A stretch of 64,000 nucleotides of DNA from positions 665 through 64,664 of the forward strand of contig JAGWKL010000002.1 of NCBI GenBank assembly GCA_028865345.1, in the 5' to 3' direction. The DNA is from Candidatus Omnitrophota bacterium (GTDB lineage: Bacteria; Omnitrophota; Gorgyraeia; Zapsychrales; Fredricksoniimonadaceae). Position 1 is the first letter of the stretch; every line of letters begins with the position of its first letter. A program made the position numbers and the translations under genes. Below are positions 5,493-45,480 of this stretch, one piece after another. The notes under the pieces are model-generated. The model did not search any database. It was not told the DNA's origin and saw only the letters and a program-made list of their open reading frames with translations.

Positions 5493-5719
5493 AGATTCTT
5501 TGAATTAAGATAATTAATTACATCTTTAACTGTTTTTAATCTTCCAATTTCTTCTTCGCCTATTTTTATATTAAATTTATCTTCAATATTTAATACTAAT
5601 TCAACAATATCCAATGAATCTGCTCCTAAATCTTCAAATTTTGAGCAGTCCTTTAAATCTTCCCTTTTAACTCCTAGAGTGTCAGCTATTATAGTCTTTA
5701 CTATATCTATATTAGTCAT
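5489..5719 (-). CDS. Acyl carrier protein.
   Basis: 76 aa acidic protein with the phosphopantetheine attachment motif DLGADSLDIVELV. Confidence 0.85.
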   Translation of the reverse strand: MTNIDIVKTIIADTLGVKREDLKDCSKFEDLGADSLDIVELVLNIEDKFNIKIGEEEIGRLKTVKDVINYLNSKNL

Positions 5720-5739
5720 ACCCCTCTAAAATAATATTT

Positions 5740-7014
5740 TCAGAACTTATACGTCAAACTCACCAACCCGATATTTATAAACTCACTATATTTCCCATCC
5801 ACCGTACCGGCGCTGCCGGCCGTCGACTTGGCAACTGAGTTGATAATGTTCCGTGTATCATAAAAAAGGATTGAATAGGCCACATCAAGTGTCAGGCGTT
5901 TAGTGATATCATAACCAAAACCTGTGGTATAACCGTTGGAATTGCTGTCCGGTATCCTCGGGTTAAAGGTGGCATCTGGGATAACCATTTCATGATGGTA
6001 ATAACCTAACCTTACACGAAAACGATCGTTGACATTATATTGGGTACCGATGGATTCAGACCATGCGGAATGCCAATCTGCGGGGGTGGGAGCAGCGAAA
6101 CCTAAAGTATTAAGGGTTGCACTGCCGTTGATGTTGATCGTCTGGTATTTCGTGCTGGACCAATCCACCCATGCCACATCAAGGTTAACCGTCCATTTCT
6201 TTGTAGGTTTGAAGCTATATCCTGCCACCACACTTTGAGGTAAAACCGACTTCTCGCTAACATTAGACACATAGGATGAAAAACCATAAGCAGTGGGATT
6301 AGCCCCGTTAATGCTCATTTTCCCCCGGTAATTGTGATTGATACGGCTGCGGTAGATCAAACCGATTTGATTTTTGTCATTGATTTTATACAGGGTCGCT
6401 ATACGGTATCCCCAAGCATCATCACCACCTTTAAGCTCGGCAATACCGATTGATCCGCCGTAACCATTAAGCGCAAAACTTTCATCCGCCTTTGATTCAT
6501 CGTTGTCCACGCTTGCGGCTATGGACCATTGCGGGGTCACTTGATACGAAAACGCCAGGGAATTATCAATGTCTGTAATGCTGGCCTGGGTTGTTGCATA
6601 CTCCAAAGGACTGTTAGGCCCCCAATTAGTGGCAGTGCCCCAATAAGAACCTGAACCAAAACCAATGCTTAATTTATTATTGACAGGCAAAACAGCGTAA
6701 AAATTGGGAATATTGAATTCATTGTTTTGCATGTGCACAGTATTTCCGTTTGGCTGTACCATATGGCCTCTGGGCGCAATAAGAGCATCTCCTACGGAAA
6801 TTTCCGGCCTGGTCATTTGATTCATACCGGCTGGGTTGTAGTACATGGCCGCAGGCGTATCCGCTTCACCGACAAAAGCCGAACCCATACCCATTGCACC
6901 AGCGTCGGGAACCTCTATATTATAGGCCCCGGAACCTGTAGCAAACGCACTCTGTCCCCAGGAAGTCATCAAAAACGCACAAAAAACGATGATGAATATA
7001 CGGAATAATGACAT
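5740..7014 (-). CDS. FadL/TodX-family outer-membrane beta-barrel protein, a channel for long-chain fatty acids or other hydrophobic compounds.
   Basis: It has a signal peptide and the N-terminal GAMGMGSAFVGEADTPAAMYYNPAG region typical of the FadL hatch domain. The amphipathic beta-strand pattern and the C-terminal YKF aromatic end are typical of OMP barrels. Confidence 0.65.
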   Translation of the reverse strand: MSLFRIFIIVFCAFLMTSWGQSAFATGSGAYNIEVPDAGAMGMGSAFVGEADTPAAMYYNPAGMNQMTRPEISVGDALIAPRGHMVQPNGNTVHMQNNEFNIPNFYAVLPVNNKLSIGFGSGSYWGTATNWGPNSPLEYATTQASITDIDNSLAFSYQVTPQWSIAASVDNDESKADESFALNGYGGSIGIAELKGGDDAWGYRIATLYKINDKNQIGLIYRSRINHNYRGKMSINGANPTAYGFSSYVSNVSEKSVLPQSVVAGYSFKPTKKWTVNLDVAWVDWSSTKYQTININGSATLNTLGFAAPTPADWHSAWSESIGTQYNVNDRFRVRLGYYHHEMVIPDATFNPRIPDSNSNGYTTGFGYDITKRLTLDVAYSILFYDTRNIINSVAKSTAGSAGTVDGKYSEFINIGLVSLTYKF

Positions 7015-30603: not shown

Positions 30604-33600
30604 TTAGCGATCTCCCTGCGTCATAGAGCCCCCCAAAAATGCCCCTAAATCCTTCATCGGCTGAATGTCGATGATCACCGGCACGAAACCTGGGGCATTT
30701 TGCAGACGGGTGAGCATGGCAGGATCCATATGGAAATTAATGCCTTGGCCCGCATGTTGTGTCTGCAAATCCATGTGGGCGGCGGTCAGATCAATACCTC
30801 CGGTGGGAGTCATGGATTGATCGGCGTGCGCCATGGCAATTTTATCCATAAGTTGCCGGGCCATGAGTATCGCTCTGTGTTGATCAATAAAATTTGGGCT
30901 TGTCACGATAGAAACCGCTTTAGCCTTAACGGCCATTTGAGCTATTTTGTCCAGCATAGTTTCGACTTCAGCATTGGAATAGCCGTTAAATACGTCGAGA
31001 TCGACATCCACCAGATCATAAGGCTTTTCCTGCGGATCAATGGATGAGCCTGGTTGAGCGGCGTATCGCACCGGCCCTTCGTCGATCATTTGCACGGCAC
31101 GCAAAGTGTCCAGATTATAAAGCCAATGCCAATAAGGCAGGCCGCTTTTATCTGAAGCTATGAAACCTTCCTTAACAAAGGGAGCTATAAAACCTTCTAT
31201 ACCAAGGACATTTTGGGCATAACGATCAGCCTCGATGAGCTTGTCCGTGTTTTCCCCAAGAAACCCGCCGGAGCTATTATAACGGCGGGTAATCCGTGCA
31301 TCAGGGTGTGCATCAATATGCAATAAACTTAACCCCTTTTGAAGCATCCCTTGCCTCAACATCAACCACCAAAAGGTAAAGACATTGCTGTGATCGTCGG
31401 AAATAAAAACCATGGGGCCTTTTTTAAGATCGATCAAAACTTTTTTCGTTAGTCCGTAGATGGTCCCGTCCTTCGCCGTTGCGCCCTTGATCAGTTGTCC
31501 TCCCATCTTATCAGACCAGCCATCAACAATGTCCCAATCCGTGATGCCGGAGGCATTTATAGAAGAAAAACCCGCCTCTGCGAAACTCTTGAGAGACACC
31601 TTCATGGCACTGTCCTTTTTAATTTTAGGCTTTGGGGCCAATAAAACCAGGGCCTTTCCGTTGGAGAAATCACGGTTTGCGTTTTGGACGATGGTGTAAT
31701 TAAACCGGCCTGGGGCGGAATTTAATTCAGCAAGAGTGTCTACAACTTGAGCCGCTTTCCCCAAAGAAGTATATTGAACAAAGGAAGTGTCCATCATCAA
31801 TGCAGAAATAAACCCCCGGTTAAAATTTTCTAAATCAAAATGCTCAGCAGCCTCTTCTTTTGTCAAAAGGTCCCCCACATCAATCACAACCATCCTGTCG
31901 GTCCCCCCGGCCGATCCAACATCTACCAAAAAACCATTAGGCTTCATGACAAAACCCCGGGCCAACAATTTCTTATATAACTTAAAATAGCCGTTTAACA
32001 GAGTGTCTATTTTTTGGTGTAAAACATCAGGATCATCCTGATAAATTCTTCTTAAACTCCTTATCCGATCCAGCAACGGGACAACTTCTTGCTGTACGAC
32101 GGCATGGGGGACCCTGATGATGTGTCCGCCCACATTGACGTCCAGGTCCTTAAAAACGAGATACCCGGCCGCCAAGGGGCCCAAACGCTCCTGATATTCA
32201 TCATATTTTGACCAAACCTGAGGATCAGTGACACCCTTGACGACAATATCACGCCCTTCGACATTCCCTTTATAGACCACTGATTCCACTCCTCCGGCAA
32301 ATTTAATCAACGGGTGGTCTCTCAATTGGGAACGCAACACATTCTTTAACGCCTCCAGGCCGGTATCCTGCGCTTTTGAAGCCATGGCATTATCTTTGAT
32401 CTCCAGTTCGATGCCATGGCCCTTATCTTGGGGAACTAAATATTCATACTCCTCTGCAAAGCCGCCGAACCGCGTATCATCAGCGACTATCGCCGTGATC
32501 TTTCCGCCGCTCTTTTTGATGCCGAAAAAGAAATTGTGACTGCCGGCGAGGCCCACATTGACCTCATGGGTTTGTATATGGCGCGCTTGGAAGGCCTCCT
32601 TGACATTGGGCAATATTTGCGAGTAGCTGTCGATCAAATTCACCATTTCGGGCCTGGGCCCCAATCTTCCCAGGAAAAGCCCGACCTGGTTGTCCAGATC
32701 GTCGAGGTCTTCATTAAAGAAATGGGCGATAGACATTTTGCCCTCGCGGTCAATCACGACCGCCACCACGCAATCCCCCATTTCGACGGCATCTGTCCAA
32801 AACACGCCGTTAGTGGCGCCGATGACCGCCGTACGCTCGGATATTTCATGGCCGACAAATTCCTTACCCGTCGACAAATTCATCAAATTGATGTCCGGCT
32901 CAGGCGGGACATGAGATTTCAGATAGGAGTACTCGATCCCCAACGCGCCGGCAAAGGCCAGCGAAACGGCTATGACTTTAAGGGATTTGGGGACAGTCAT
33001 GGCCGCATTGGGCATTTGGTCCGTATACCGTATGACTTGATTTGCCTTCATGGCCAAATCAAACTTCACCCCTCCGGAAAAATATTTTCTCGGGACCATT
33101 TGCCGTGTCAGGGGGTCCCGTTTTTCCTCGATATAATTATAGACGCCTTTTTTAAACGCCTGCAGGTAACGCCGGTAAATTGCCTCCACCCGTAAGGGGC
33201 CGTTGAAGCCCACACCTGCCACTTTATTTTTACCGGCATAAGCTTGTGCCAGGATACTCTTTTTTATTTTCATCTTATACCAGGTAGCCAGGATCAAAGA
33301 ATTATAAACCTGACGCAAGACGGCAAAATTTTCATCTTCATTGACCTCCCTGGTCAATTCAGGGATGACGATTTCACGGATGACCTGACTCCCCAATTGA
33401 TTGGTGCCTCGGGCAACGGCCGCAGCACCCGACCCTTCATGCTTTTCAAGTGACAAATAATCCTGGTCCAGCATGACCTTTAGCCTGCTGCTTATCACAT
33501 AGGCCGTTTGTGCCCCGGTATTTTCATAGACCACGGCTTTTTGGGGAAGTATCCAGACTTTGTTAAACGTGTTCACTGCAATATCGGTCGTCCCGTATTT

Positions 33601-34101
33601 TTTCCGGGCCTCTTCATAAACACGTTTCCAAAACTTTTTTCCGGTTTGTCCCTCGGGATAAATCAGGCTGGCGGTGACCTGTTTAAGCAGGTAATCTTCA
33701 GCCAATAAATCACGGCCCATCCGTGTTGAACCAAAAGAAGGCGGGATGATCCTGTCTTTTTCATAAGGGCTTAAATTGACCCACAGGTCCTCTTCCGGGA
33801 CGGTCAATGATGCCAGGAAGTATTGGACCAGCCTGGCAGCTTCCCGTTTCAGCCCCTCCCTTCCTTCAGGATACTGGTCCCCCTGATCCAAAATAAAGTC
33901 GAATCTCAGAGGATCATCAGGATAAACTTTTATTCCTTTGAGGATGGGAGGCTCAAGAGGAGGACTTAAATGGACCATGACGCCGGGGGCAGGCAGACGC
34001 CATTCATCCGCCCGGGCCATGGGGATCGGCCCCATGACAAGCGTTACAAAAAAAGACAAAATGGTCAATACGCATATAGGGGACTTTGGGGTTTGGTTCA
34101 T
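30604..34101 (-). CDS. Large secreted multidomain protein (about 1165 aa) with a C-terminal ureohydrolase (arginase/deacetylase)-like domain.
   Basis: I set the start at MNQTPK, which carries a signal peptide. The C-terminal region has arginase-family metal-binding motifs in order: SDDHS, HIDAHPD and DVDLDVF. The first roughly 800 aa are unrecognised. Confidence 0.6.
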   Translation of the reverse strand: MNQTPKSPICVLTILSFFVTLVMGPIPMARADEWRLPAPGVMVHLSPPLEPPILKGIKVYPDDPLRFDFILDQGDQYPEGREGLKREAARLVQYFLASLTVPEEDLWVNLSPYEKDRIIPPSFGSTRMGRDLLAEDYLLKQVTASLIYPEGQTGKKFWKRVYEEARKKYGTTDIAVNTFNKVWILPQKAVVYENTGAQTAYVISSRLKVMLDQDYLSLEKHEGSGAAAVARGTNQLGSQVIREIVIPELTREVNEDENFAVLRQVYNSLILATWYKMKIKKSILAQAYAGKNKVAGVGFNGPLRVEAIYRRYLQAFKKGVYNYIEEKRDPLTRQMVPRKYFSGGVKFDLAMKANQVIRYTDQMPNAAMTVPKSLKVIAVSLAFAGALGIEYSYLKSHVPPEPDINLMNLSTGKEFVGHEISERTAVIGATNGVFWTDAVEMGDCVVAVVIDREGKMSIAHFFNEDLDDLDNQVGLFLGRLGPRPEMVNLIDSYSQILPNVKEAFQARHIQTHEVNVGLAGSHNFFFGIKKSGGKITAIVADDTRFGGFAEEYEYLVPQDKGHGIELEIKDNAMASKAQDTGLEALKNVLRSQLRDHPLIKFAGGVESVVYKGNVEGRDIVVKGVTDPQVWSKYDEYQERLGPLAAGYLVFKDLDVNVGGHIIRVPHAVVQQEVVPLLDRIRSLRRIYQDDPDVLHQKIDTLLNGYFKLYKKLLARGFVMKPNGFLVDVGSAGGTDRMVVIDVGDLLTKEEAAEHFDLENFNRGFISALMMDTSFVQYTSLGKAAQVVDTLAELNSAPGRFNYTIVQNANRDFSNGKALVLLAPKPKIKKDSAMKVSLKSFAEAGFSSINASGITDWDIVDGWSDKMGGQLIKGATAKDGTIYGLTKKVLIDLKKGPMVFISDDHSNVFTFWWLMLRQGMLQKGLSLLHIDAHPDARITRRYNSSGGFLGENTDKLIEADRYAQNVLGIEGFIAPFVKEGFIASDKSGLPYWHWLYNLDTLRAVQMIDEGPVRYAAQPGSSIDPQEKPYDLVDVDLDVFNGYSNAEVETMLDKIAQMAVKAKAVSIVTSPNFIDQHRAILMARQLMDKIAMAHADQSMTPTGGIDLTAAHMDLQTQHAGQGINFHMDPAMLTRLQNAPGFVPVIIDIQPMKDLGAFLGGSMTQGDR

Positions 34102-34175
34102 CTCTTTTAAAGTATGTAATATATTTAGATAAAAAACAAGGGTCAAAGAACAATAAAAATGGTAATATAACAGCC

Positions 34176-35276
34176 ATGCGTTTAAAAAAGGAAGAACTGT
34201 TTTTTGTAACTTCTTTTGAGCAAGCCTCCATCCTGCGTAAATACGCCATCCTCTTTCTGGTCTCCTCTGTTATTCCCATGGTCCTTTTATATTACGTCTA
34301 TTTTAAAAGCACCCGGATCGGGCACATCGCCATGCTGCTGATGGTAACGGGTGTTTTGGTGGGTTACTTTTCCATCCGAACCTTACTGACCAGGGCCATC
34401 AGTATCGCCGAGGAAAACCGCAAAGCGATCGAGCCTTTTTTAAAACCTGAAATCTTCAAAGAACTCAGCAAGGAAAAAAATGAACTGATGGCTTTAAACC
34501 ACTTGTTCTCCGCCATGACCAAACAGCTGGAAGCCAACATCAAAGAATTAAGATCCAAGAACGAGGAGCTTAAAACCCTGGACCGGCTCAAAGATGATTT
34601 TGTCAACAACGTTTCCCATGAATTGCGCCTGCCGTTGACCGTCATCCAGGAAAGCATACGCCAGATCGGCGAAGGGATGTTCGGCAAAGTCAATGACTTG
34701 CAGATGAAATACATCCATATGTCATTAAGAAATATCGACAGGCTCAGGGCGCTCATCGACAATATGCTGGACATTGCCAAGATTGAGAAAGGCAAGCTGG
34801 AACTCCTGAAAAAAAACGTTGATGTCAGCCAGATCATCAAAGAGGTCATCTCCGATTTTACGTTCAAAATTGAAAAAAAAGGTTTGGCCCTGAAAGCCGC
34901 CCTGCCTGACCAACCGCTTTGGGCAACGGTCGATAAAGATAAGATCACCCAGGTCTTGATCAACCTGGTCGGCAACGCCTGTAAATTCACCGAAAAAGGC
35001 CGCATCATCGTGTCCGCCTGCGACAGAGGGGATTTGATTGAATGCAGCGTCGAGGATTCCGGAATAGGCATTCCCCCGCAGGAGATGCCCCATCTATTCT
35101 CTAAATTCCATCAGATCGGCCGGCTGAAAAACCAGCCGGAGAAAGGGACAGGTTTGGGGCTGGTCATTTCCAAACATATCATCGAATTGCACAACGGGCA
35201 GATCCATGCGCAAAACCTGGAAGGAACGGGCACGAAATTCACCTTTACATTGCCTAAATCCCCCGGCGGACTTTAA
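34176..35276 (+). CDS. Sensor histidine kinase (two TM helices, HisKA, HATPase_c).
   Basis: I set the start at MRLKKEE to avoid overlap with the upstream gene. The H-box NVSHELRLPL and the G-boxes DSGIGIP and GTGLGLVISKHIIELHNG are present. Confidence 0.8.
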   Translation: MRLKKEELFFVTSFEQASILRKYAILFLVSSVIPMVLLYYVYFKSTRIGHIAMLLMVTGVLVGYFSIRTLLTRAISIAEENRKAIEPFLKPEIFKELSKEKNELMALNHLFSAMTKQLEANIKELRSKNEELKTLDRLKDDFVNNVSHELRLPLTVIQESIRQIGEGMFGKVNDLQMKYIHMSLRNIDRLRALIDNMLDIAKIEKGKLELLKKNVDVSQIIKEVISDFTFKIEKKGLALKAALPDQPLWATVDKDKITQVLINLVGNACKFTEKGRIIVSACDRGDLIECSVEDSGIGIPPQEMPHLFSKFHQIGRLKNQPEKGTGLGLVISKHIIELHNGQIHAQNLEGTGTKFTFTLPKSPGGL

Positions 35277-35293
35277 GGAAAGGAGTATTTTTC

Positions 35294-35674
35294 ATGAAGA
35301 AAATATTAATCATTGATGACGACGTGGACATCATTGATCTGGTCACCAACAGGCTGGAGAGAAACAACTATGAGGTCATATTTTCCAATGACGGCGATAA
35401 TGGGGTCAAAAAAGCCCTTGAGCAAAAACCTGACCTGATCATCATTGATGTCATGATGCCGCGCCTGCCGGGACCGGAAGCGGTCAAGCTCCTGAAATCA
35501 TATGAAGGGACCCAAAACATACCTATTCTTTTCTTTACCGCCATGAACTCATACCTGCCGCCTAATACCGAATTTGATGACATCAATGTGGGCGGCCAGT
35601 TTTTCCCCTCTATCCCCAAACCATTTGATCCCAACAGACTGTTGTCCTGTGTCCGGCTGCTTTTGGGAGAATGA
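35294..35674 (+). CDS. Stand-alone CheY-like response regulator receiver.
   Basis: Starts KILIIDDD and has a phospho-acceptor Asp in LIIIDVMMP. It lies 17 nt downstream of the kinase. Confidence 0.85.
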   Translation: MKKILIIDDDVDIIDLVTNRLERNNYEVIFSNDGDNGVKKALEQKPDLIIIDVMMPRLPGPEAVKLLKSYEGTQNIPILFFTAMNSYLPPNTEFDDINVGGQFFPSIPKPFDPNRLLSCVRLLLGE

Positions 35675-35844
35675 AAAATTTTCAAATCAGGTGGAGAAAG
35701 GTCAGAAAAAAGCGGCAAAAGCCAATGGTTGATCCGTATTAAATGAGTATGATGAAAAGCATGAAAATGATCCTGCCAAGCGACGGTTCCATTCTCTTTG
35801 TAGAAACGCCCCTTACATCCTCCTAAACTCTCCATCAGCAGCCT

Positions 35845-35915: not shown

Positions 35916-38321
35916 CTATATGCGCGCTTTGGCTGAAATACGCATTTCATAAAAGGAGCGGATCAAAAAGAACAGGGCAACGCCAAAAAAGACAACGGCA
36001 AGAAAAATGTCAAGCCCCCGGCCCAAACCAATGGCAATTTCAATGGCCAGCAACCCAAACAAGGTCGTAAATTTGATGATCGGATTGATGGCCACCGATG
36101 ATGTGTCTTTAAAAGGATCCCCCACCGTGTCCCCGACCACCGTTGCCGCATGTAATTCTGTGCCTTTTTCCTGATACGTCACTTCTACCAACTTTTTAGC
36201 ATTGTCCCACGCCCCGCCGGCGTTGGCCATGAAAATGGCTTGAAAAAGGCCGAAAACGGCAATGGAGATCAGATAGCCTATGAAGAAATACGGCTCCAGA
36301 CAGGCGAAAGCAAGGGTCATAAAAAGCACGGCCACGAAAATATTGATCATCCCCTTTTGGGCGAACATCGTACAAATTTCTACGACCCTTGTACTGTCCT
36401 GTTTGGAGGATCTGTCTGTTCCTTCCAACTTGATATGTTCCTTGATATACTGCACAGTATGATAAGCCCCTGTGGTCACCGCCTGAATGGAGGCGCCGGA
36501 AAACCAGAAGATCATGCCCCCGCCGCTTAAAAGCCCGAGCAACAAAGGCGGATAAAGCACCGACATGTTCTCCATATGCACTGTGAGGCCGCGGGTTAAT
36601 ATCATAATGATAGAAAAAATCATGGTGGTGGCGCCAACCACGGCTGTCCCGATCAACACCGGCTTTGAAGTGGCCTTAAAGGTGTTCCCCGCCCCGTCAT
36701 TGGCTTCCAGATGATGTTTGGCAAGCTCGAAATTCGGCGTAAAACCGCTGGTCTTTGCGATTTCTTCCTTAATATTCGGAATGGCCTCGACAAGAGAGAG
36801 TTCATAAATCGACTGCGCGTTGTCGGAAACAGGCCCATAAGAATCAACGGCAATGGTGACTGCCCCCATCCCTAAAAATCCGAACGCCACCAGGCCAAAG
36901 GCAAACACCGCGGGTGCTATCATGATGGCATCCAACCCCATTAAACTGACAAAATAGCCTAAAGCCATCAGGACCACGATCACCAGCCCCATCCAATACG
37001 CGCTGTAATTCCCCGCCACCAGCCCGGAAAGGATATTCAGCGAGGTGCCACCCTTTTTGGAGCATTCGTAAATGTTCTTCACAAAATCCGAATTCATGGA
37101 TGTAAAGACCTTGATCCCCTCCGGAATGACGGCACCGGCCAAGGTGCCGCAGGTGATGATGGTGGCCAGCTTCCACCAAAACGTACCGTCCCCCAAATTC
37201 GGGATAAGGACATAGGAGGCCACATAGGTCAGGATGATCGAAAAAATCGAGGTGATCCATACCAGGGAGGTCAAGGGATCTTCAAAGTTCATTTCTTTAG
37301 CATTGGCATAGCGCCTTTTGGCAAAAAAATGGTTGATTTCATAAGAAAAACCGCTGGCGATCAGCATGATCAAACGCATGGAAAAGATCCAAACCAGGAG
37401 CTCTGCCTGGACCTGCGGATTTTTGACGGCCAAGAGAATAAAAGCGATGAGCGCCACTCCGGTCACCCCGTAGGTCTCGAAACCGTCCGCCGTGGGCCCA
37501 ACCGAGTCCCCCGCATTGTCCCCCACGCAATCGGCGATGACCCCCGGATTGCGCGCGTCGTCCTCCTTGATATTAAAAACGATCTTCATGAGATCAGACC
37601 CGATGTCCGCAATTTTTGTAAAAATGCCGCCTGCGATCCTCAGAACGGAGGCGCCCAACGATTCACCGATGGCAAAACCGATAAAACATGGGCCGGCATA
37701 GTTGGGATTAATAAAAAGAAGAATGCATAACATGACAAAAAGTTCAATGCTGATAAGGAGCATGCCGATGCTCATGCCCGCCTGCAAAGGAATGGAATAG
37801 ACCGGAAATGGTTTGCCTTCCAGGCTCGCAAAGGCGCAACGCGAATTCGCCAGGGTGTTGATCCTCATGCCAAACCAGGCGACACTATAGCTTCCGGCGA
37901 TACCGATGAGACTGCAGACTAAAATAAGAGCGACCCTGCCGGCGTCAAAATGGCGCAGCCAGCCGAAATAGGCCACCATGACACCCCCGATCAGGACCTC
38001 CAAAACCAGCAGGAACTTCCCCTGGGCAATAAGATATGCTTTACAGGTCGAATAAATGAGCTCGGAGATCTCTTTCATGCTTTGATGCACCGGCATCTTT
38101 TTCAATTGCCCGAACTGATAGATACCAAAAAATGCCCCGAAAGCGCAGACAATAAGACCTAACATCAATGCGGTGTGGCCGTTTAAGTGAAAAATAAGAG
38201 GAACCGAGGATAAATCAGGCACTATCAGGTCTGATTCGCCCGCCCAAGCTCCCGGAAGACCCAGAAAAAATGCCATGAACGTTAAAAGTCCAAGTCTATA
38301 AAACTTCTGACGACGGCTCAT
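35916..38321 (-). CDS. hppA: Membrane-bound H+-translocating pyrophosphatase, copy 1.
   Basis: H+-PPase signatures are present (GVIADCVGDNAGDSVGPTADGFETYGVTGVALI, DGAGNTFKATSKPV, DNAGGAWDNAKK). The GNTFKA motif has Lys rather than Ala, which suggests the K+-independent subtype. Confidence 0.9.
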   Translation of the reverse strand: MSRRQKFYRLGLLTFMAFFLGLPGAWAGESDLIVPDLSSVPLIFHLNGHTALMLGLIVCAFGAFFGIYQFGQLKKMPVHQSMKEISELIYSTCKAYLIAQGKFLLVLEVLIGGVMVAYFGWLRHFDAGRVALILVCSLIGIAGSYSVAWFGMRINTLANSRCAFASLEGKPFPVYSIPLQAGMSIGMLLISIELFVMLCILLFINPNYAGPCFIGFAIGESLGASVLRIAGGIFTKIADIGSDLMKIVFNIKEDDARNPGVIADCVGDNAGDSVGPTADGFETYGVTGVALIAFILLAVKNPQVQAELLVWIFSMRLIMLIASGFSYEINHFFAKRRYANAKEMNFEDPLTSLVWITSIFSIILTYVASYVLIPNLGDGTFWWKLATIITCGTLAGAVIPEGIKVFTSMNSDFVKNIYECSKKGGTSLNILSGLVAGNYSAYWMGLVIVVLMALGYFVSLMGLDAIMIAPAVFAFGLVAFGFLGMGAVTIAVDSYGPVSDNAQSIYELSLVEAIPNIKEEIAKTSGFTPNFELAKHHLEANDGAGNTFKATSKPVLIGTAVVGATTMIFSIIMILTRGLTVHMENMSVLYPPLLLGLLSGGGMIFWFSGASIQAVTTGAYHTVQYIKEHIKLEGTDRSSKQDSTRVVEICTMFAQKGMINIFVAVLFMTLAFACLEPYFFIGYLISIAVFGLFQAIFMANAGGAWDNAKKLVEVTYQEKGTELHAATVVGDTVGDPFKDTSSVAINPIIKFTTLFGLLAIEIAIGLGRGLDIFLAVVFFGVALFFLIRSFYEMRISAKARI

Positions 38322-38435
38322 ATTTCACTCCTTTATAAAATGACTTTCATACCTTTTTTAGTATAAAAGCCTTCTGTCGGTACTGAAATGAGTAATTGCC
38401 TGGAGATTGCTACGTAGTATTACTTAAAGGAGGGC

Positions 38436-40193
38436 TTATTGTTGAATAACACGCAGGAATTCTTTGGCGGCTTCCGCAGGGCCGTTGCGCTCCCAGCCGG
38501 AAAGCCCCAGGCGGGTGCGGAGCAATCCCACAAAAACCCCGGCCTTAAAGAAAGCGTCAAAATATTTCTTCGCCAATTGCTCATGAAGTTCCTTGTACTG
38601 GACAGGACCGAAAACATTGGCGAAATAGGAGTGGACTATCCCGCTTGAAGTGGTGGTGCCTTTGCTCATCACTGTCCCATCCCGGAAGATCTTGATGGCA
38701 GATTCGGACGTTTTCAACTTCTCAATGATGGGATGATCATCATCAATATCTTCATAATTGTTGGCATACAGGATAAAATCAACCTGGTGGCCTTTGATCA
38801 GATTATTAAAGGTGGTGACCGGCAGAATGATGCGCGCGTTGACCTGGTTGGCGTTCATGATGATGGCGCGGTCGATCTGCCCAAGGGCATAACCGGGCTG
38901 CAGGTCGTCCAGGCGCAGGAAAGCGCCGATCTCCGTCCCTCGGCCCATGACTTTTCCCTGCGCTGACAAAGCCAAGGATCCCATGTCGTCCGCAATAACG
39001 ATAATATCCTGGATGTAAAGGTCCCCCAAGGTGCGGAATGCCTCCAACGTTTCCGATTTTCCGGCCCCTGTGTCCCCCATCAATAAAACGGTAACGTCTT
39101 TATCGCCCTTAAGGATGATGCGCACCATGGCCCCGTGAAAAGGCAGGTGCCCCATTTTCATGATCTTGATGTTATGGAGCGTCAGGATCATTTTCTTCAA
39201 ATAACCGAAATAACCGAATTCGTCGCGGCCGGGGACCGCGCCGACCAAAAGACCGTTTCTTTCATCATCGAAGAAAACCGTCGGCATCTTGCTAAGACCG
39301 TCCAATACCGCGCCCGGAACCCCAAAAGCAAAAACCGCATCAGGGACGCGTTCCAAATCCTTGTCATCTGCCATTTCGAAAAGATTGCACAGCGAAAGAC
39401 CGAGTTCGAAAAACATTTTATGGAAATAAACCAGGACAATGAGCGGCCCCACCTTGGCCGGATAACACAGCCATTCATCCTTGTCGAAATCAAACAAGTC
39501 CATGGGGTTCTGCGCCACGCGTTCGAATTTTCCCGTACGCTTGTTCATCGGCGTATCCAGTATCAAAGGCGGATACAGAAGCACCTGCCGGATGATGGGC
39601 ACCCCCCGCAATTTTTCATAAACACCGGAAGGCAAATTCAATTTCCGCTGGGAAGTGATCACCCCGACTTCGGCGCCGGCAATGACCTGCCGGTAAATAC
39701 GCGGGTGTTGTTTGGTCAAATTCTCGGCAATATCGCGGTAGGTCCCCCGGATGAGGTGGCTCAACGGTTCGACCACATTATTGAAGGTGCGGTAAGGCCT
39801 TTGATCCAGGTCACGGCCTGCCGAATCACAGACGACAAAACGCTCCAGGGAGCGCCAATAGTTGTAAAGATATTCAATAAAATCATTGAGCAGGAACTTG
39901 TCTTGCAAAAGCACCTCTGATCCTGGAACTGCGCCAGGCAGAAGGTCTGCGGAATTCTTGCTCAAAAACTTGAAACTCCTGATAATGAGATCGATCTCAT
40001 CCTTATCTGCAGGCTTGTCGGCGTGGAATATATTTAAAAGAATGGAATTCTTGTGCTTGAGCTCCGCCATGCAGTCGCCCAGCACCCTCTTGAACAATTC
40101 GCTGTTAAGGACATCCTCCGTGGTGAAACAGACCTTATCATTAAAATGGATGATGACCTTGTTGCCGTGAATATCGAAATGGGAATTATTCAT
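38436..40193 (-). CDS. HprK-like P-loop kinase domain protein with a large uncharacterised N-terminal domain.
   Basis: The C-terminal region HGAMVRIILKGDKDVTVLLMGDTGAGKSETLEAF...IVIADDMG matches the HPr kinase/phosphorylase C-domain core (HG..V.GxGVLxxGxSGxGKSE ... ADD). The roughly 370 aa N-terminal domain has no recognisable motif. Confidence 0.55.
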   Translation of the reverse strand: MNNSHFDIHGNKVIIHFNDKVCFTTEDVLNSELFKRVLGDCMAELKHKNSILLNIFHADKPADKDEIDLIIRSFKFLSKNSADLLPGAVPGSEVLLQDKFLLNDFIEYLYNYWRSLERFVVCDSAGRDLDQRPYRTFNNVVEPLSHLIRGTYRDIAENLTKQHPRIYRQVIAGAEVGVITSQRKLNLPSGVYEKLRGVPIIRQVLLYPPLILDTPMNKRTGKFERVAQNPMDLFDFDKDEWLCYPAKVGPLIVLVYFHKMFFELGLSLCNLFEMADDKDLERVPDAVFAFGVPGAVLDGLSKMPTVFFDDERNGLLVGAVPGRDEFGYFGYLKKMILTLHNIKIMKMGHLPFHGAMVRIILKGDKDVTVLLMGDTGAGKSETLEAFRTLGDLYIQDIIVIADDMGSLALSAQGKVMGRGTEIGAFLRLDDLQPGYALGQIDRAIIMNANQVNARIILPVTTFNNLIKGHQVDFILYANNYEDIDDDHPIIEKLKTSESAIKIFRDGTVMSKGTTTSSGIVHSYFANVFGPVQYKELHEQLAKKYFDAFFKAGVFVGLLRTRLGLSGWERNGPAEAAKEFLRVIQQ

Positions 40194-40275
40194 CAGTTCT
40201 TGCCATTGAAGGATCTACGGGTTTAAAAAATCTATATATAGTAAGACTTTTTATCCCATCTCACAACATTTTTCT

Positions 40276-41175
40276 TTATTTTAGGGAAACACCGAAACCT
40301 TTGAGGTGCCGTATCCAGCCGGCCATGAATTTGGCCCGGTCCATGACAATGCTGTCTTCTATTTGTCCCTGGACCGTTCCTTCTAACTTAAACGATTTCG
40401 CGCTTAAGTTCTTCAGTACATACCGGATGGCGGGTTGGGTTTGTTGATAAAAGGTGTTCAGGCGCTCGTCGATGACCTCCGGCCTGTCATCCTCCCGTAT
40501 TTCCGCGGGGCGGTTCTCCAAAGCAGCTTTGGAGATCTCTTGGGCTATCCGCATTTGAGCGCGTTGTTTGAAGACCGTATCCTGTTTGCGGGGGATGTGC
40601 GCATGGACATACAAATCAACGGCCAGCGGCTTGCCTTGCCACAGAATCTTGCCCGACTGCAGTATTTTTACCTGTTCTAAATTCCGGGGAAAACCGTCGA
40701 AGAATAACCCAAAGGCCTTATTGTAGGGTTCTGTTTTCAAAACAGCGGTGACCACATTAATGACGGTCTCATCGCTGATCATTTTGCCGGCTTTCATTTC
40801 GGCCAAATCCCGGTCGGTCACAAAAGAAAGGAAAGGGCCGTATTTTTCCAGGTCTTCCGCAGAGGCGCTGCCGGGGTCTTTCCTGATTTTTAATATCTTC
40901 CTGAAATAACCGCCCAGGACCAGGGTTTCATACCGTGAACCTTCAGGCAAGAATTTATTAAGTTCTTTAATCAACCAGGCGGACAAAGTGCCTTTGCCGC
41001 AACCGGCTTTGCCTAAGATCGTAAAAATACGCACCTTGCCGATAAACTGTTTTATCGCATCTTTGATAAGGTTTTGAACGGCCGTATCTTTATTCGATTC
41101 CGGGTGCCGCAAAACCATGAACATGCGGTTTCTGATCGCTGAGGACACACGGCAGACCACTTTTAGTTTACGCAT
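40276..41175 (-). CDS. Adenylate-kinase-family protein with an N-terminal extension.
   Basis: It has the P-loop GKAGCGKGT, the FDGFPRNLEQV motif and a LID-like R..DDRPEVIDERLNTFYQQTQP. Adk proteins are typically around 215 aa, so this 299 aa protein appears to be an extra paralog outside the usual secY-adk context. Confidence 0.6.
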   Translation of the reverse strand: MRKLKVVCRVSSAIRNRMFMVLRHPESNKDTAVQNLIKDAIKQFIGKVRIFTILGKAGCGKGTLSAWLIKELNKFLPEGSRYETLVLGGYFRKILKIRKDPGSASAEDLEKYGPFLSFVTDRDLAEMKAGKMISDETVINVVTAVLKTEPYNKAFGLFFDGFPRNLEQVKILQSGKILWQGKPLAVDLYVHAHIPRKQDTVFKQRAQMRIAQEISKAALENRPAEIREDDRPEVIDERLNTFYQQTQPAIRYVLKNLSAKSFKLEGTVQGQIEDSIVMDRAKFMAGWIRHLKGFGVSLK

Positions 41176-41245
41176 GTTTATAGCATATATTCTCTTATAA
41201 AATTATGGAATACATCAAAATACGTAAGGATGTCGGTACAAGTAC

Positions 41246-41509
41246 TTACTGACGGGAGCTCAGGCAGGTGCACTGGGGAGGTGAAAACATAGGCCACTTA
41301 AATTCGTAACCGGCATATCCTGCCTGCGTGCATTTGTTCTCGCAAGCCGTAGTTTGAACGCCTGATTGCTGGTACTTCTGATAGGCATTATAGAACAGCC
41401 AGGCGATAACAGGGATGCAGATGACCGATACGATCAGCGGGCGCCAGGAATGGTCTTGCGCTTTATGGGGTTGGGACAAATCGCTCATATTTTCAGTATA
41501 AAGGCTCAT
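41246..41509 (-). CDS. Small single-TM protein with a Cys-rich C-terminus, hypothetical.
   Basis: 87 aa. The TM helix IVSVICIPVIAWLFY is followed by C-x3-C and C-x-C (ACENKCTQ...QCTCLSS). Confidence 0.3.
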   Translation of the reverse strand: MSLYTENMSDLSQPHKAQDHSWRPLIVSVICIPVIAWLFYNAYQKYQQSGVQTTACENKCTQAGYAGYEFKWPMFSPPQCTCLSSRQ

Positions 41510-41576
41510 TACTATTTTTCAATTATTTTGTCCACTTTCTGACCTTACTTGAAAGACGGCCATGACCCGCCGCACT

Positions 41577-43973
41577 TTAAGCTGAAATACGCATCTCGTA
41601 AAAAGACCGGACCAAAAAGAACACGGCAACTGTAAAAAAAACAGCCGCCAAAAATATATCCAGCCCCCGGCTTAACCCGATGGCGATCTCAATGGCCAGT
41701 AAGCCGAACAATGTCGTGAATTTGATGATCGGATTGATGGCCACAGATGAAGTGTCTTTAAACGGGTCCCCCACCGTGTCTCCCACCACCGTCGCCGCAT
41801 GCAATTCAGTGCCTCTCTCTTGGTATGTGACTTCCACGAGCTTCTTGGCATTGTCCCATGCTCCGCCGGCATTGGCCATGAAAATGGCCTGAAAGAACCC
41901 GAAGGCGGCAATGGAGATCAAATACCCTATAAAAAAATACGGCTCCAGGCAGGCAAAGGCGAGAGTGGTAAAAAGGACGGTCACGAAAATATTGATCATG
42001 CCTTTTTGGGCGAATACCGTGCAAATTTCCACCACCTTTTTGCTGTCCTTGGTGGAAGCCCTGCCTTCCTGGTCCAGCTTTATGTTTTCTTTGATGTATT
42101 GCACGGTGTGGTAGGCGCCGGTGGTCACCGCCTGGATGGAAGCCCCGGAAAACCAATAGATCATGCCGCCCCCGCTCAAGAGCCCAAGCAGGAATGGAGG
42201 ATAAAGTACGGATAAATTTTCCATATGGACCGTAAGGCCGCGGGTCAATATCATGATGATGGAAAAGATCATGGTGGTGGCCCCCACCACGGCCGTTCCG
42301 ATCAAAACAGGCTTGGCTGTGGCTTTAAAAGTGTTGCCTGCGCCGTCATTGGATTCCAGATGGTGCTTGGCAAGCTCAAAGTCAGGCGTAAAGCCATGGT
42401 CCCTGATGATCTCCTCTTTGATATGAGGAAGGGTCTCGATGAGAGAAAGCTCATAAATGGATTGTGCATTGTCGGAAACCGGCCCATAGGAATCAACGGC
42501 AATGGTGACCGGCCCCATGCCCAAAAATCCAAACGCCACCAGGCCAAAAGCAAACACCGCCGGTGCGATCATAATGGCATTCAGGCCAAGAGTACTGATA
42601 AAAGAAGCAACGGCCATCAGGACCACAATGACCACCCCCATCCAGTGGGCGCTGTAATTCCCCGCCACCAAGCCTGATAGGATATTAAGAGAAGCCCCTC
42701 CTTTTTTGGAGCTTTGATAAATGTTCTTCACAAAATCTGAATTCAAGGAAGTAAACACCTTGGTCCCCTCCGGTATGACCGCTCCTGCCATGGTGCCGCA
42801 GCTGATGATGGCGGCGAGTTTCCACCAGTAGGTGCCATCACCCAAAGATCGTATGAGGGCAAAAGAAGCCAGGAAAACCAGGGCGATCGATACGATGGAG
42901 GTGATCCACACCAGGGATGTCAACGGCGCTTCGAAATCCATGGTGTGAGTTTTTAAATAGCGCCTTTTGGCAAAAAAATTATTGATCTCGTAGGAAAGGC
43001 CGCTGGCGATGATCATGATGGTGCCGATGAAAAATATCCACACCAACAGCCTGGCCTGAACCAGGGGATTTTTAACAGCCAAAAGAATAAAGGAAATAAG
43101 CGCCACCCCGGTCACGCCGTAGGTCTCAAAAGCATCCGCCGTAGGACCCACCGAGTCGCCGGCATTGTCTCCCACGCAATCGGCGACCACCCCGGGATTA
43201 CGCGCGTCGTCTTCCTTGATGTTAAAAGCGATCTTCATGAGATCGGCGCCGATGTCCGCAATTTTGGTAAAGATCCCTCCGGCGACCCTCAGCACAGACG
43301 CGCCCAACGATTCACCAATGGCAAAACCGATAAAGCAAGGGCCGGAATAATCGGGGTTGATAAAAAGGATGATGCTTAACATGACGAAAAGTTCCGTGCT
43401 TATCAACAACATGCCGATGCTCATACCCGCCTGCAGGGGAATGGAATAAACGGGAAAGGGTTTGCCTGCAAGGCTTGCGAAAGCGCACCGGGCATTGGCC
43501 TTGCCGTTGATCCTCATGCCGAACCATGCCACGGCATAGCTTCCGGCGATGCCGATCAGGCTGCAGACTAAAATAAGAACGACTTTGTCGGCGTCAAAAT
43601 GCCGCAGCCATCCGAAATAGGCCACCATGACAGCACCGATCAAAACTTCCAGGGCAAGCAAAAACTTTCCCTGGGCGATGAGATAGGTTTTGCAGGTCGT
43701 ATAAATGAGCCGGGAGATATCTTCCATGCTTTTATGCACGGGCATTTTCTTCAAACGTGCGTACTGGTACATTCCGAAAAAGATGCCGAAAATGCATACC
43801 AAAAGCCCCAAGATGAGGGTCCTGCGGCCGTCCAAACCAAAAATGCCGGGTACAGCGGACAAATCCGGAACCTTCAAATCCGCCTCACCGGCCCATGCCG
43901 GCGAAACACCTGAAAAGAATGCCGCAAAAATTACAAACCAGGATTTACAGACCCCCGTCCACCGATTCTTCAT
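41577..43973 (-). CDS. hppA: Membrane-bound H+-translocating pyrophosphatase, copy 2 (paralog of 35916-38321).
   Basis: It has the same motifs as copy 1 and is collinear along its full length. Sampled aligned nucleotide stretches are about 88% identical. There is a ribosome-binding site 23 nt downstream of tRNA-Ser. Confidence 0.9.
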   Translation of the reverse strand: MKNRWTGVCKSWFVIFAAFFSGVSPAWAGEADLKVPDLSAVPGIFGLDGRRTLILGLLVCIFGIFFGMYQYARLKKMPVHKSMEDISRLIYTTCKTYLIAQGKFLLALEVLIGAVMVAYFGWLRHFDADKVVLILVCSLIGIAGSYAVAWFGMRINGKANARCAFASLAGKPFPVYSIPLQAGMSIGMLLISTELFVMLSIILFINPDYSGPCFIGFAIGESLGASVLRVAGGIFTKIADIGADLMKIAFNIKEDDARNPGVVADCVGDNAGDSVGPTADAFETYGVTGVALISFILLAVKNPLVQARLLVWIFFIGTIMIIASGLSYEINNFFAKRRYLKTHTMDFEAPLTSLVWITSIVSIALVFLASFALIRSLGDGTYWWKLAAIISCGTMAGAVIPEGTKVFTSLNSDFVKNIYQSSKKGGASLNILSGLVAGNYSAHWMGVVIVVLMAVASFISTLGLNAIMIAPAVFAFGLVAFGFLGMGPVTIAVDSYGPVSDNAQSIYELSLIETLPHIKEEIIRDHGFTPDFELAKHHLESNDGAGNTFKATAKPVLIGTAVVGATTMIFSIIMILTRGLTVHMENLSVLYPPFLLGLLSGGGMIYWFSGASIQAVTTGAYHTVQYIKENIKLDQEGRASTKDSKKVVEICTVFAQKGMINIFVTVLFTTLAFACLEPYFFIGYLISIAAFGFFQAIFMANAGGAWDNAKKLVEVTYQERGTELHAATVVGDTVGDPFKDTSSVAINPIIKFTTLFGLLAIEIAIGLSRGLDIFLAAVFFTVAVFFLVRSFYEMRISA

Positions 43974-43996
43974 AACTCCCTTTCTTTATTTAAGAA

Positions 43997-44081
43997 CGGA
44001 GAGGGTGAGATTCGAACTCACGGCCCCTTGCGAGGCAACGGTTTTCAAGACCGCCGCATTCGACCACTCTGCCACCTCTCC
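43997..44081 (-). tRNA. tRNA-Ser (anticodon UGA), type II with a long variable arm.
   Basis: Folded by hand: acceptor GGAGAGG/CCTCTCC; anticodon stem GCGGT/ACCGT with loop CUUGAAA (anticodon UGA); long variable arm; T-arm GTGAG-TTCGAAT-CTCAC; discriminator G. No CCA end is encoded. Confidence 0.8.
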
Positions 44082-44157
44082 AAAATTTAAAGAAATAATT
44101 TGGGCGTATACATAAAAAAGGATATATTAACAAAAGGTCCAAATCTTAACAAGAAAT

Positions 44158-45480
44158 ATGAAAACGTTCAAACCTTTTCCCTTACCTCTCCATGTGTCGG
44201 GCGTTTTCCTTTTCTCATTGATCTACTGGATTTTTCTGTCTCTGAAAAGTATTTCTGCCGACCTCATTGGTTATAAAACCTTGGGGTCTATCATTTACCA
44301 CCAAGGGTTGGTCGGATACGCAGCCACCGGGCTGCAACGTGAACCTCTCTATCCCCTGTTATGTTCCTTGGCCATGTATGTAGAACACTTAAGCGGTGTT
44401 AATTTCACTCATATCATGGCAGCTTTAAGCATCATCATGTTGATGATCTCTCAAATTCTAATATATGCCATTTTAAGAAAACTGAACATCCGCCCTTTGA
44501 TCTGTTCTTTAGTGCTGCTTTATTGGGCCGTATCGCCATGCATCACAGAATCCGCCTTTCACATATTATTATTTTGCGAAATCGTTACCTATCCCCTCAT
44601 TCTTGCCGTAATTATTTTCTCTTACCTCGGATGGGAATCTGTAAAAGAAAACGACAAAGGGGAGGCCTGCGCCTATGGAGCCCTTACAGGCCTTTTATTT
44701 GCATTGCTGACCCTCGTGAAAGCCGCATTTGAATGTATTTGCCCTGCCTATCTTATATTCTTTTTCCTGGGAGCCTTGCATAAAAATAAATTTTCCGCTT
44801 CTCTGATCTGTTTTCTGGCTGCTGCAGGCTTATTATTTTATTCTCCTATCGTTGGCTACAAATCTTTAAATAAAATGTATAATGGGCATTTTGCCGTTAC
44901 TAACAGGGGCGACTGGGCCTTTTATGGAGTTGCGGCCCACCGTGTAAGACCTCTCAAGAACTACCTCATCAATCTTGATTTCGTAATAGGCAACTGCGAG
45001 GCCTTTTTTCAATCATCAGCATGCAACTCTGTAAGTTCCGGTATTTCGGATAGTTTAGGGACACAAAAGGCGGCAGAATTGGCCGCCAAGCACATCCCGC
45101 CGCAAGCCGTCTCAAATACCCTTCTGCAGTTGTCCATCCAGAAAATCCTGTCCCATCCGTTTCAATATATTTTGTTATCAGCAACCGAAGGACTCAAAGC
45201 ATTATTTTGGGAAAACAACGCCGGTATCATTCCACTGCGGTTCATTATGCCTATCATTACATTCTTTGCGATCATTTATTGCTGTTTCAACTTTGCCCAA
45301 GCCCCCATTTTGATAAAAAACATTATGGCTATGATTTTCTTATTTGTTTTCTTTTATTCATTTTTTGACACTTTGGGCCGCTATTTTCTTCCGATTTCTT
45401 CCCTATACCTTATCAGCATCGGTTACTGCATGAATTCATTATGCAACTTTCTATCCCCTTCTAAAAACACTATAGTTTAA
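44158..45480 (+). CDS. Polytopic GT-C-type glycosyltransferase-like membrane protein (ArnT/PMT_2-like).
   Basis: About 12 TM helices. The N-terminal loop carries an REPLYPLL motif resembling the EKPPL signature of ArnT/PMT-family lipid-linked sugar transferases. Confidence 0.45.
   Translation: MKTFKPFPLPLHVSGVFLFSLIYWIFLSLKSISADLIGYKTLGSIIYHQGLVGYAATGLQREPLYPLLCSLAMYVEHLSGVNFTHIMAALSIIMLMISQILIYAILRKLNIRPLICSLVLLYWAVSPCITESAFHILLFCEIVTYPLILAVIIFSYLGWESVKENDKGEACAYGALTGLLFALLTLVKAAFECICPAYLIFFFLGALHKNKFSASLICFLAAAGLLFYSPIVGYKSLNKMYNGHFAVTNRGDWAFYGVAAHRVRPLKNYLINLDFVIGNCEAFFQSSACNSVSSGISDSLGTQKAAELAAKHIPPQAVSNTLLQLSIQKILSHPFQYILLSATEGLKALFWENNAGIIPLRFIMPIITFFAIIYCCFNFAQAPILIKNIMAMIFLFVFFYSFFDTLGRYFLPISSLYLISIGYCMNSLCNFLSPSKNTIV

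Follow-up and report, generated by a model that had tools for sequence, protein, structure and literature searches.

Introduction

The membrane-bound pyrophosphatase (mPPase) of solved structure closest to the two pumps described here is PaPPase, the K+-independent H+-pyrophosphatase (H+-PPase) of Pyrobaculum aerophilum (PDB 8b37). Among mPPases, K+ independence is defined by Lys12.46, and position 12.49 of PaPPase affects both activity and communication between subunits, the T12.49A variant being nearly inactive (PMC10897367). The evolutionarily divergent Na+-regulated H+-PPases (Luoto et al. 2015, Biochem J 467:281), of which those of Chlorobium limicola and Cellulomonas fimi are examples, are K+-independent and carry a semi-conserved Glu at position 6.53, according to Table 1 of PMC6882861. 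In this work, we analyzed a stretch of 64,000 nucleotides from a Candidatus Omnitrophota bacterium (assembly GCA_028865345.1, contig JAGWKL010000002.1, positions 665 to 64,664; "the window" in what follows), in which two H+-PPase genes (hppA) lie on the same strand, 3255 nt apart, one of them directly behind a tRNA-Ser(UGA) gene. We compared the loci of the window with loci (L-numbers) and proteins (P-numbers) of relatives. The two genes are long-diverged paralogs and not the product of a recent duplication, and the row in which they stand, though real, is a rather ordinary arrangement of genes specific to this lineage and contains no inserted island.

Read along the minus strand from 44082 to 35916, the row consists of the tRNA-Ser(UGA) gene, hppA copy 2, an open reading frame (ORF) of 87 amino acids (aa), the gene of an adenylate kinase (Adk)-like protein of 299 aa (ADKL), that of a protein of 585 aa (K585) and hppA copy 1. 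The five co-directional genes are separated by gaps of 67-114 nt. Copy 1 is the "down" gene (win1) and copy 2 the "up" gene (win2), and their counterparts in locus L087 are named L087dn and L087up. The same gene set is also found on contig JAGWOE010000001.1 of GCA_028871075.1. The spacer between the pumps encodes the 585-, 299- and 87-aa ORFs, all on the strand of the pumps; of what a preliminary description of this DNA had placed there, the three ORFs and the Adk paralog with its N-terminal extension stand, while the label of an HprK-like kinase does not and the 87-aa ORF is unsupported as a gene. We consider it fairly probable that the row is stable and vertically inherited and holds two anciently diverged, functional-looking paralogs of the NF001950 subfamily, copy 1 being the resident gene and copy 2 an addition belonging to a second clade, clade B.

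Two anciently diverged hppA copies

Copy 1 (35916..38321, minus strand; 801 aa) and copy 2 (41577..43973, minus strand; 798 aa) are collinear hppA genes, as they had first been described. They cover positions 1-644 of the 645 in the Pfam H_PPase profile PF03030 with 599 and 594 bits, respectively (E about 1e-179; gathering cut-off 29.7 bits). Among the NCBIfam models, both match NF001950 (PRK00733.1-1) at 1362.7 and 1332.2 bits, the equivalog cut-off being 826; the next-best pyrophosphatase model reached 351 bits and stayed under its own cut-off, so that NF001950 is sharply separate. At 67-85% identity, this subfamily is represented in Omnitrophota, Planctomycetota, Rokubacteria/Methylomirabilota, Acidobacteriota, Gemmatimonadota and Myxococcota (Sorangium, Minicystis).

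The two proteins are 84% identical over 783 aa without gaps. Their DNA is 79% identical over 2356 nt, with values of 59% to 85% in windows of 150 nt, and the nucleotide identity of about 88% given in the preliminary description is thus not reached even in the best of these windows. When the genes were compared by blastn together with about 1 kb of flank on each side, homology did not extend beyond the coding sequence (38274-35923 versus 43923-41571): the shared DNA starts about 50 nt inside each gene and stops at the stop codon, and no duplicated flank sequence was found. Sliding-window identity and exact-run analysis revealed no gene-conversion tract between the copies, the longest exact run being 26 nt. 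The synonymous divergence (dS) between copy 1 and copy 2 is 1.16 and hence saturated; between positional orthologs it lies at 1.6-1.85. The ratio of nonsynonymous (dN) to synonymous divergence is 0.094 between the copies, 0.035 between copy 1 and L087dn and 0.071 between copy 2 and L087up. Given the saturated dS and the low dN/dS, both copies are old and constrained, and both are under strong purifying selection.

The closest relatives of the pumps lie in other genomes, copy 1 being 88.8% identical to L087dn and 87.4% to the pump of L004. In a neighbour-joining tree with 200 bootstraps, copy 1 groups with L087dn (98%) and then with the single-copy genes of L004, L007 and L088, whereas copy 2 groups with L087up (90%), the next to join being P0140 (93%), which is present as a single copy among unrelated neighbours. 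The clades that contain the two copies, A (copy 1) and B (copy 2), are sisters with a bootstrap of 65-66%. The residue at position 12.49, Ser in copy 1 and Ala in copy 2, splits clade A from clade B independently and agrees with the tree.

The two lineages have evolved at different rates. Between the upstream copies of the window and L087 dN is 0.116, and between the downstream copies 0.064, so that copy 2 changes about 1.8 times faster. In an alignment of 117 family members, 364 columns show a conservation of 97% or more; copy 1 deviates at two of them and copy 2 at four, and two of the four deviations of copy 2 are shared by L087up. Both are exclusive to these two proteins: G6.51A, where 116 of the 117 members have Gly, and an Ile-to-Val change in the motif GVIADC, where all 117 have Ile. 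The changes of the copy 2 lineage adjoin catalytic aspartates and the ion gate.

The row in related genomes

Locus L087 (GCA_028870995.1) is syntenic with the window from the Polysacc_deac_2/TsaD genes to an FlmR-type gene. Its row of tRNA-Ser(UGA), PPase, spacer, ADKL, 585-aa gene and PPase has the layout of the window; its tRNA-Ser is 100% identical to that of the window and lies 47 nt before the ATG of the positional ortholog of copy 2, the tight apposition of tRNA and pump thus being kept in a second genome. As the housekeeping proteins of the two genomes are only 69-85% identical, the row has survived substantial divergence.

Relatives with a single pump show parts of the same neighbourhood. 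In L098 (GCA_015233375.1), a 586-aa homolog of K585 (74% identity) is followed after 23 nt by one Ser-type pump (77.5% identical to copy 1), and the genes 3' of the pump that L098 and copy 1 have in common are U143, a ketoacyl synthase (KAS), an acyl carrier protein (ACP), a hydrolase, an HAD phosphatase and an aminotransferase. The 23-nt adjacency from K585 to PPase recurs in L087, and in the window K585 likewise precedes a PPase. In L004, the single pump and a 586-aa K585 homolog adjoin in convergent orientation; in L088, ADKL and PPase adjoin in divergent orientation; in L089/L090 and L093/L094, the order is ADKL, a Cmk-like gene (Cmk2) and PPase; and in L091/L092, ADKL occurs without a pump nearby. 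The genes between the two pumps of the window hence neighbour a single hppA in L098, L089, L093, L088 and L004, which makes their association with the pump ancestral and refutes the kinase island that had been proposed. Because the pump of single-pump relatives stands directly behind K585 and/or ADKL, we take copy 1 as the resident gene and copy 2 as the added one.

Several other observations concern this neighbourhood. A gene of the Cytidylate_kin2 family (PF13189) is repeatedly found beside or close to the pump gene or the K585 gene of relatives (L004 9150-9848; L088 10762-11460; L089 11112-11822; L093 3476-4156; L003 16864-17565) and takes the slot between ADKL and pump that K585 fills in the window, where no Cytidylate_kin2 homolog was found. 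A giant FlmR_OhkR_N-type protein (30604-34146, minus strand in the window) lies near copy 1 in both the window and L087, and homologs with 51-56% identity directly flank clade B pumps, upstream in L008 (5707-9864) and downstream in L097 (12476-16984), so that this protein, too, neighbours the pump repeatedly. Two genes of relatives, the pump gene of L089 (12521-14576) and the canonical PEPCK_ATP gene of L004 (20817-22400), are each broken up into several short ORFs, probably by frameshift errors of the assembly and not as pseudogenes. Finally, the pairs of K585 and pump homologs P0011/P0130 (contig of 30830 nt) and P0006/P0132 (contig of 24194 nt), whose longest contigs agree in length within each pair, suggest two more genomes with both genes on one short contig.

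These data bear directly on the explanation offered first, a recent local tandem duplication of hppA with definable boundaries and a later insertion of the kinase genes as an island. Several features speak in favor of it: (i) the copies share a strand and are in register at a distance of 5649 nt, (ii) they are collinear over the 783 aligned residues without insertions or deletions, and (iii) dS within the genome is somewhat below that between orthologs. Against this stand a dS above 1 with 79% nucleotide identity and no surviving flank homology, the closer relatives of each copy in other genomes (88.8% and 87.4% identity for copy 1, 93% bootstrap with P0140 for copy 2), a layout that predates the split from L087, and the occurrence of the supposed island genes beside single-copy hppA in five relatives. 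Since dS exceeds 1, the copies group with genes of other genomes and the layout is also that of L087, the pair did not arise by recent tandem duplication, and we regard this explanation as extremely improbable. What stands of that proposal is a pair of diverged hppA paralogs in tandem.

Predicted type of the pumps

The catalytic Asp and Lys motifs of transmembrane helices (TM) 5, 6, 12, 15 and 16, which we scored as GGIxTKxAD, DNxGD, GNTxKA..K, AWDNAKK and GDTVGDPxKDT, are intact in both copies and invariant in the 117 family members. Both copies read GNTFKA, the Lys-type signature that had been noted before, and Lys12.46 is present in 116 of the 117 members; the assignment to the K+-independent subtype is supported by the presence of this residue, given its role in other mPPases (PMC10897367). 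Both also carry the semi-conserved Glu at 6.53, and from Lys12.46 together with Glu6.53 the two pumps are predicted to be K+-independent, H+-pumping enzymes. At 12.49 the family has Ser in 70 members, Ala in 43 and Thr in 4, and neither copy has the coupled Thr that is used as a criterion of K+-independent mPPases. The N-terminus of all close orthologs is a basic-hydrophobic segment ending in (A/S)WAGE or ARAGE, which resembles the cleavage site of a signal peptide, and NF001950 members, of about 800 aa, are accordingly predicted to bear a cleavable signal peptide that ends in AWA before GE. In public databases, proteins of the pump family (P0121-P0240) are named "sodium-translocating pyrophosphatase" or "K(+)-stimulated pyrophosphate-energized sodium pump". 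Such names conflict with the near-invariant Lys12.46 and are probably wrong in detail.

Compared with PaPPase (215 bits and 33% identity over 667 aligned residues), both copies share Lys12.46, Glu6.53 and the full set of catalytic Asp/Lys motifs in the same five helices. In contrast, PaPPase has the coupled Thr at 12.49 where copy 1 has Ser and copy 2 Ala, its motif reads GNTTKA instead of GNTFKA, and it is shorter (729 versus about 800 aa); the pumps of the window, unlike PaPPase, possess the signal-peptide-like N-terminus and a 16-residue insert before the GNT motif. The divergent Na+-regulated H+-PPases are reportedly only 23-34% identical to canonical mPPases and retain Lys12.46. With 33% identity to PaPPase, Lys12.46 and Glu6.53, the pumps of the window fit this group, a likeness by description only. 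If they belonged to it, they would be Omnitrophota members of the group, in which such a tandem pair would be a novelty. A literature search on Omnitrophota pyrophosphatases found nothing relevant.

K585, a divergent member of the PEPCK superfamily

ATP-dependent phosphoenolpyruvate carboxykinase (PEPCK; PckA), with solved structures from Thermus thermophilus (2pc9/1j3b) and E. coli (1aq2), is the described enzyme to which K585 (38436..40193, minus strand) is closest. K585 had been described as an HprK-like P-loop kinase with an N-terminal domain of about 370 aa. It has a P-loop, GDTGAGKSE at residues 373-381, but matches no HprK model in Pfam or NCBIfam, and its AF2 model (pLDDT 83, pTM 0.86) has a PEPCK fold over the whole chain. 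In a Foldseek search with this model, all 50 top matches listed were PEPCKs, both ATP- and GTP-dependent, aligned over both domains with E values down to 7e-14 and TM-scores of 0.38-0.49 over 390-540 aligned columns. An hhalign comparison with a fragment of the canonical PEPCK of L004 gave E 1.7e-4 with a probability of only 49%, with the motifs in register (K585/PEPCK: YFGYLKKM/YGGEMKKG, PFHGA/SFHCSA, GDTGAGKSE/GLSGTGKTT, ADDMG/GDDEHG and NARIILP/NTRVSYP). The PEPCK-type active-site motifs are invariant in 53 K585 homologs, and the NCBI name of the protein agrees with the PEPCK superfamily.

At the sequence level the relationship is remote. No Pfam family matched K585 at E values up to 0.01, PEPCK_ATP (PF01293) included, a sequence search found no relative in the PDB, and the NCBIfam PEPCK model NF006821 scored 18.5 bits, far below its cut-off of 369. 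K585 and PckA share the two-domain fold and the motifs YxGxxKK, the metal-binding His, the P-loop GxxGxGK[ST], DD, NxRxxxP and the GT/FxxxFG region; they differ in that K585 is only 12-19% identical to PckA, with TM-scores of 0.4-0.5, and falls under the Pfam and NCBIfam thresholds for PEPCK. Its own family is large, with more than 5900 matches across phyla at 59% identity or higher, and remains 59-82% identical from Omnitrophota to Atribacterota (Atrimonas thermophila) and Negativicutes (Lucifera butyrica); we compared the K585 homolog loci L001, L002, L003, L004 and L098. We found nothing relevant in the literature on this PEPCK-like family. Fold model and motifs together identify K585 as a divergent PEPCK-superfamily enzyme in a widespread, apparently unstudied family. 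In the close relative L004, the K585 homolog has a canonical PEPCK_ATP gene nearby, and K585 is hence unlikely to be simply the organism's PEPCK.

ADKL and the 87-aa ORF

ADKL (40276..41175, minus strand) resembles Adk and the UMP/CMP kinases (1UKY, AK1, E. coli Adk) in its P-loop GxxGxGKGT, the DGFPR motif, the lid Arg residues and the DD pair. It matches Pfam ADK (PF00406) at 56.2 bits (cut-off 26.8) and falls under every NCBIfam Adk equivalog cut-off, the best model being TIGR01351 (70.3 bits versus 168). Its AF2 model (pLDDT 88.7) finds UMP kinase 1UKY, AK1 and E. coli Adk as best folds (Foldseek E 4e-8, target-normalized TM-scores (TMt) of 0.6-0.69). The family forms 18 clusters at 69-100% identity, after which identity drops to 29-31% for canonical Adk, and residues G55-T63, R92, D160-N165 (DGFPRN), R209, R227, D229, D230 and R238 are invariant within it. 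ADKL adds to the common fold an N-terminal extension of about 50 aa, an 18-aa insert, a short lid and a C-terminal helix; unlike canonical Adk, to which it is at most 31% identical, it forms two helices in the extension, with an invariant LRHPExN.D, and carries the insert in the domain that binds the nucleoside monophosphate (NMP). The view of this protein as an adenylate-kinase-family paralog with an N-terminal extension is hence confirmed: by model and profile, it is a true Adk-fold paralog in which the catalytic residues are kept.

The neighbours of ADKL are not always those of the window. In L092 (3800-14326), its gene lies among PMT_2-type, GT2 glycosyltransferase and MdoG genes, and in L089 (7845-9344) and L090 (39-1538) it stands beside a PMT_2 gene. 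Because of these neighbours, the partner of ADKL could be envelope-glycan synthesis and not the pump.

The 87-aa ORF (41246..41509, minus strand) is known from its reading frame and translation only. It does encode, as reported, one hydrophobic segment and four C-terminal Cys, but it had no Pfam, NCBIfam or PHROG match and no tblastn match in the syntenic relative or in any compared locus, and it must be considered an orphan and a doubtful gene. In its place, L087 has two unrelated small genes on the opposite strand (DUF5985 and DUF4423). A promoter-like sequence, TTGAAA-16-TATACT, overlaps the start of the ORF.

Recurrence of pump, K585 and ADKL

An explanation that would give the row a common purpose is a dedicated PPi/adenylate energy module, in which K585 would make or use PPi, ADKL would recycle AMP and the pumps would be tuned to hydrolysis versus synthesis. 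The five genes are co-directional with gaps of 67-114 nt, K585 precedes PPase in L098, L087 and the window and neighbours it in L004, and ADKL lies near a pump in five of six contexts despite rearrangements; ADKL is moreover lineage-restricted with all catalytic residues kept. In HprK/P, the P-loop of the PEPCK/HprK superfamily can bind PPi, which also counts for the module. On the other side, 0 of 80 pump loci of the same subfamily in other species have a K585 or ADKL homolog, or a second pump, within 10 kb; K585 homologs of Atrimonas, Lucifera and the close Omnitrophota relative L003 have unrelated neighbours; the ADKL gene of L092 has its glycan-synthesis neighbours and no pump; and synteny kept in one narrow lineage can be mere inheritance. 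We therefore hold the dedicated module to be unlikely. More unlikely still is an extended version of it, in which the K585 family would be a new class of PEPCK-like phosphotransferase tied to PPi as donor or product, acting in an Omnitrophota PPi-economy operon with ADKL and two specialised mPPases that differ at 12.49 and 6.51 and might even form heterodimers.

Origin of copy 2

The position of copy 2 next to a tRNA gene had suggested that the tRNA served as a junction of insertion or duplication. In the window, we found no second copy of the tRNA-Ser 3' end that could represent an att-like repeat, and repeat, PHROG and Pfam scans of the neighbours revealed no integrase, phage-family or mobile-element gene near copy 2. 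In GC content, copy 2 (0.51-0.52) does not differ from copy 1 or from the surrounding DNA, the only gene low in GC being the neighbouring 440-aa ORF. Copy 2 thus shows none of the marks of a tRNA-targeted genomic island (integrase, repeat of the tRNA 3' end, atypical composition), and the proposed junction finds no backing.

These results also weigh on the possibility that copy 2 is a xenolog, that is, a clade B hppA from another Omnitrophota lineage that integrated at tRNA-Ser(UGA) in the ancestor shared by the window and L087 genomes and came to lie beside the resident operon by chance or by homology-assisted recombination. In its favor, copy 2 and L087up nest with P0140 in clade B with the same Ala at 12.49, whereas the genomes closest by K585 identity (L003/L007 and L004) carry only a clade A pump with Ser12.49. 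Copy 2 lies right at a tRNA, and tRNA genes are classical integration sites; the DNA immediately 3' of copy 2 differs between the window (orphan ORF) and L087 (DUF5985 and DUF4423 genes), and the window has an extra low-GC gene across the tRNA. Besides the missing integrase, att-like repeat and mobile-element gene and the normal GC content of copy 2, it speaks against a xenolog that a random landing on the same strand no more than 3.3 kb from a resident homolog is improbable, and that the same tree is also explained by an old duplication with two subsequent losses. The proximity of the copies on one strand favors duplication, and nesting within clade B and the position at the tRNA favor acquisition; we consider the xenolog a possible but rather doubtful origin.

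Transcription of the row

In the thrU-tyrU-glyT-thrT-tufB operon of E. coli, tRNA genes are co-transcribed with a downstream protein gene. The row is similar in that tRNA-Ser (43996/43997..44082, minus strand; ARAGORN and Rfam RF00005, 61.5 bits) lies directly 5' of an ORF on the same strand, the likeness here being known from sequence alone. The gap between the 3' end of the tRNA and the start codon of copy 2 measures 22 nt (ARAGORN) or 23 nt (Rfam) and contains the ribosome-binding site AAAGGGAG, as described before, and the same arrangement exists in L087 with a gap of 47 nt. Since 22-23 nt with a Shine-Dalgarno sequence leave no room for a promoter or a terminator, transcription from the tRNA-Ser promoter most likely reads through into copy 2. 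No recognisable conserved promoter was found upstream of tRNA-Ser in the window and L087, and an Rfam scan at a permissive E-value found tRNA-Ser as the only RNA. Copy 1 is probably expressed together with the ADKL and K585 genes, as judged from the layout.

Other features near the row

Between the U211 gene and tRNA-Ser lies a 440-aa polytopic membrane ORF (44158-45480, plus strand) with a GC content of 0.42, compared with about 0.50 around it; it has no Pfam, NCBIfam or PHROG match. L087, although syntenic in other respects, lacks this ORF, its U211 gene being followed directly by the tRNA, which indicates an insertion or deletion beside the tRNA. Homology of the ORF to the PMT_2 gene beside tRNA-Ser in L089 was considered and rejected (E 0.016, not significant). 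On the other side of the row, a 155-aa ORF immediately 3' of copy 1 (35368-35835, minus strand) overlaps a response-regulator gene (35294-35674, plus strand) and is probably a shadow ORF; the true neighbours 3' of copy 1 are a convergent pair of histidine kinase and response regulator genes (34086-35674), kept in L087. Further away, positions 1-1000 and 4001-6000 of the window are low in GC (0.32-0.33 versus about 0.50), the latter overlapping the upstream part of a 7TM-GAF histidine kinase gene (2927-5086).

Discussion

Taken together, the results point towards an old row with a resident and an added pump. According to the reading we favor, the single pump of relatives, directly behind K585 and/or ADKL and probably in an operon with them, would represent the ancestral state, and copy 1 would descend from such a resident gene. 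Copy 2 would have been placed between tRNA-Ser(UGA) and the resident operon before the genomes of the window and L087 split, coming either from an old duplication with differential loss elsewhere or by transfer from a related Omnitrophota lineage. Afterwards, purifying selection would have kept both copies, with copy 2 changing faster and fixing G6.51A, the Ile-to-Val change and Ala in place of Ser at 12.49. Copy 2 would be produced by read-through from the tRNA-Ser promoter and freed by the 3' processing of the tRNA, and copy 1 would be co-expressed with ADKL and K585. From their divergence under constraint, the two pumps may be kinetically or regulatorily specialised isoenzymes.

Several observations weigh against this reading. 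First, the nodes that divide clades A and B have a neighbour-joining bootstrap of only 65-66%, and the tree does not separate old duplication from transfer. In addition, the dS within the genome (1.16) is below that of the orthologs (1.6-1.85), which could reflect shared codon usage or an old, blurred gene conversion. Besides, promoter-like matches in the row are fewer than in shuffled controls, and terminator-like matches are about twice as many as in shuffled sequence and mostly lie inside coding sequence. Finally, K585 homologs outside Omnitrophota are not adjacent to a pump, and the ADKL gene of L092 lies beside glycan-synthesis genes with no pump.

The main value of these results is a corrected annotation and interpretation of the row, and not a new kind of system. 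The overall interest of the locus is modest, as multiple mPPase paralogs per genome and tRNA-mRNA co-transcription are already known. Mutagenesis of PaPPase links positions 12.49 and 6.51 to activity and subunit communication, and a natural pair of pumps that differs at precisely these two positions is a ready-made comparison for studies of the mPPase mechanism. It is tempting to speculate that pump, NMP kinase and K585 are metabolically coupled, for instance by recycling together the AMP and PPi that adenylate-forming reactions release. The recurring association of an mPPase with a lineage-specific Adk paralog and a widespread PEPCK-fold family offers a testable lead on the function of the K585 family, and it is this family, with its repeated pairing with the pump in Omnitrophota, that we consider the most promising lead.

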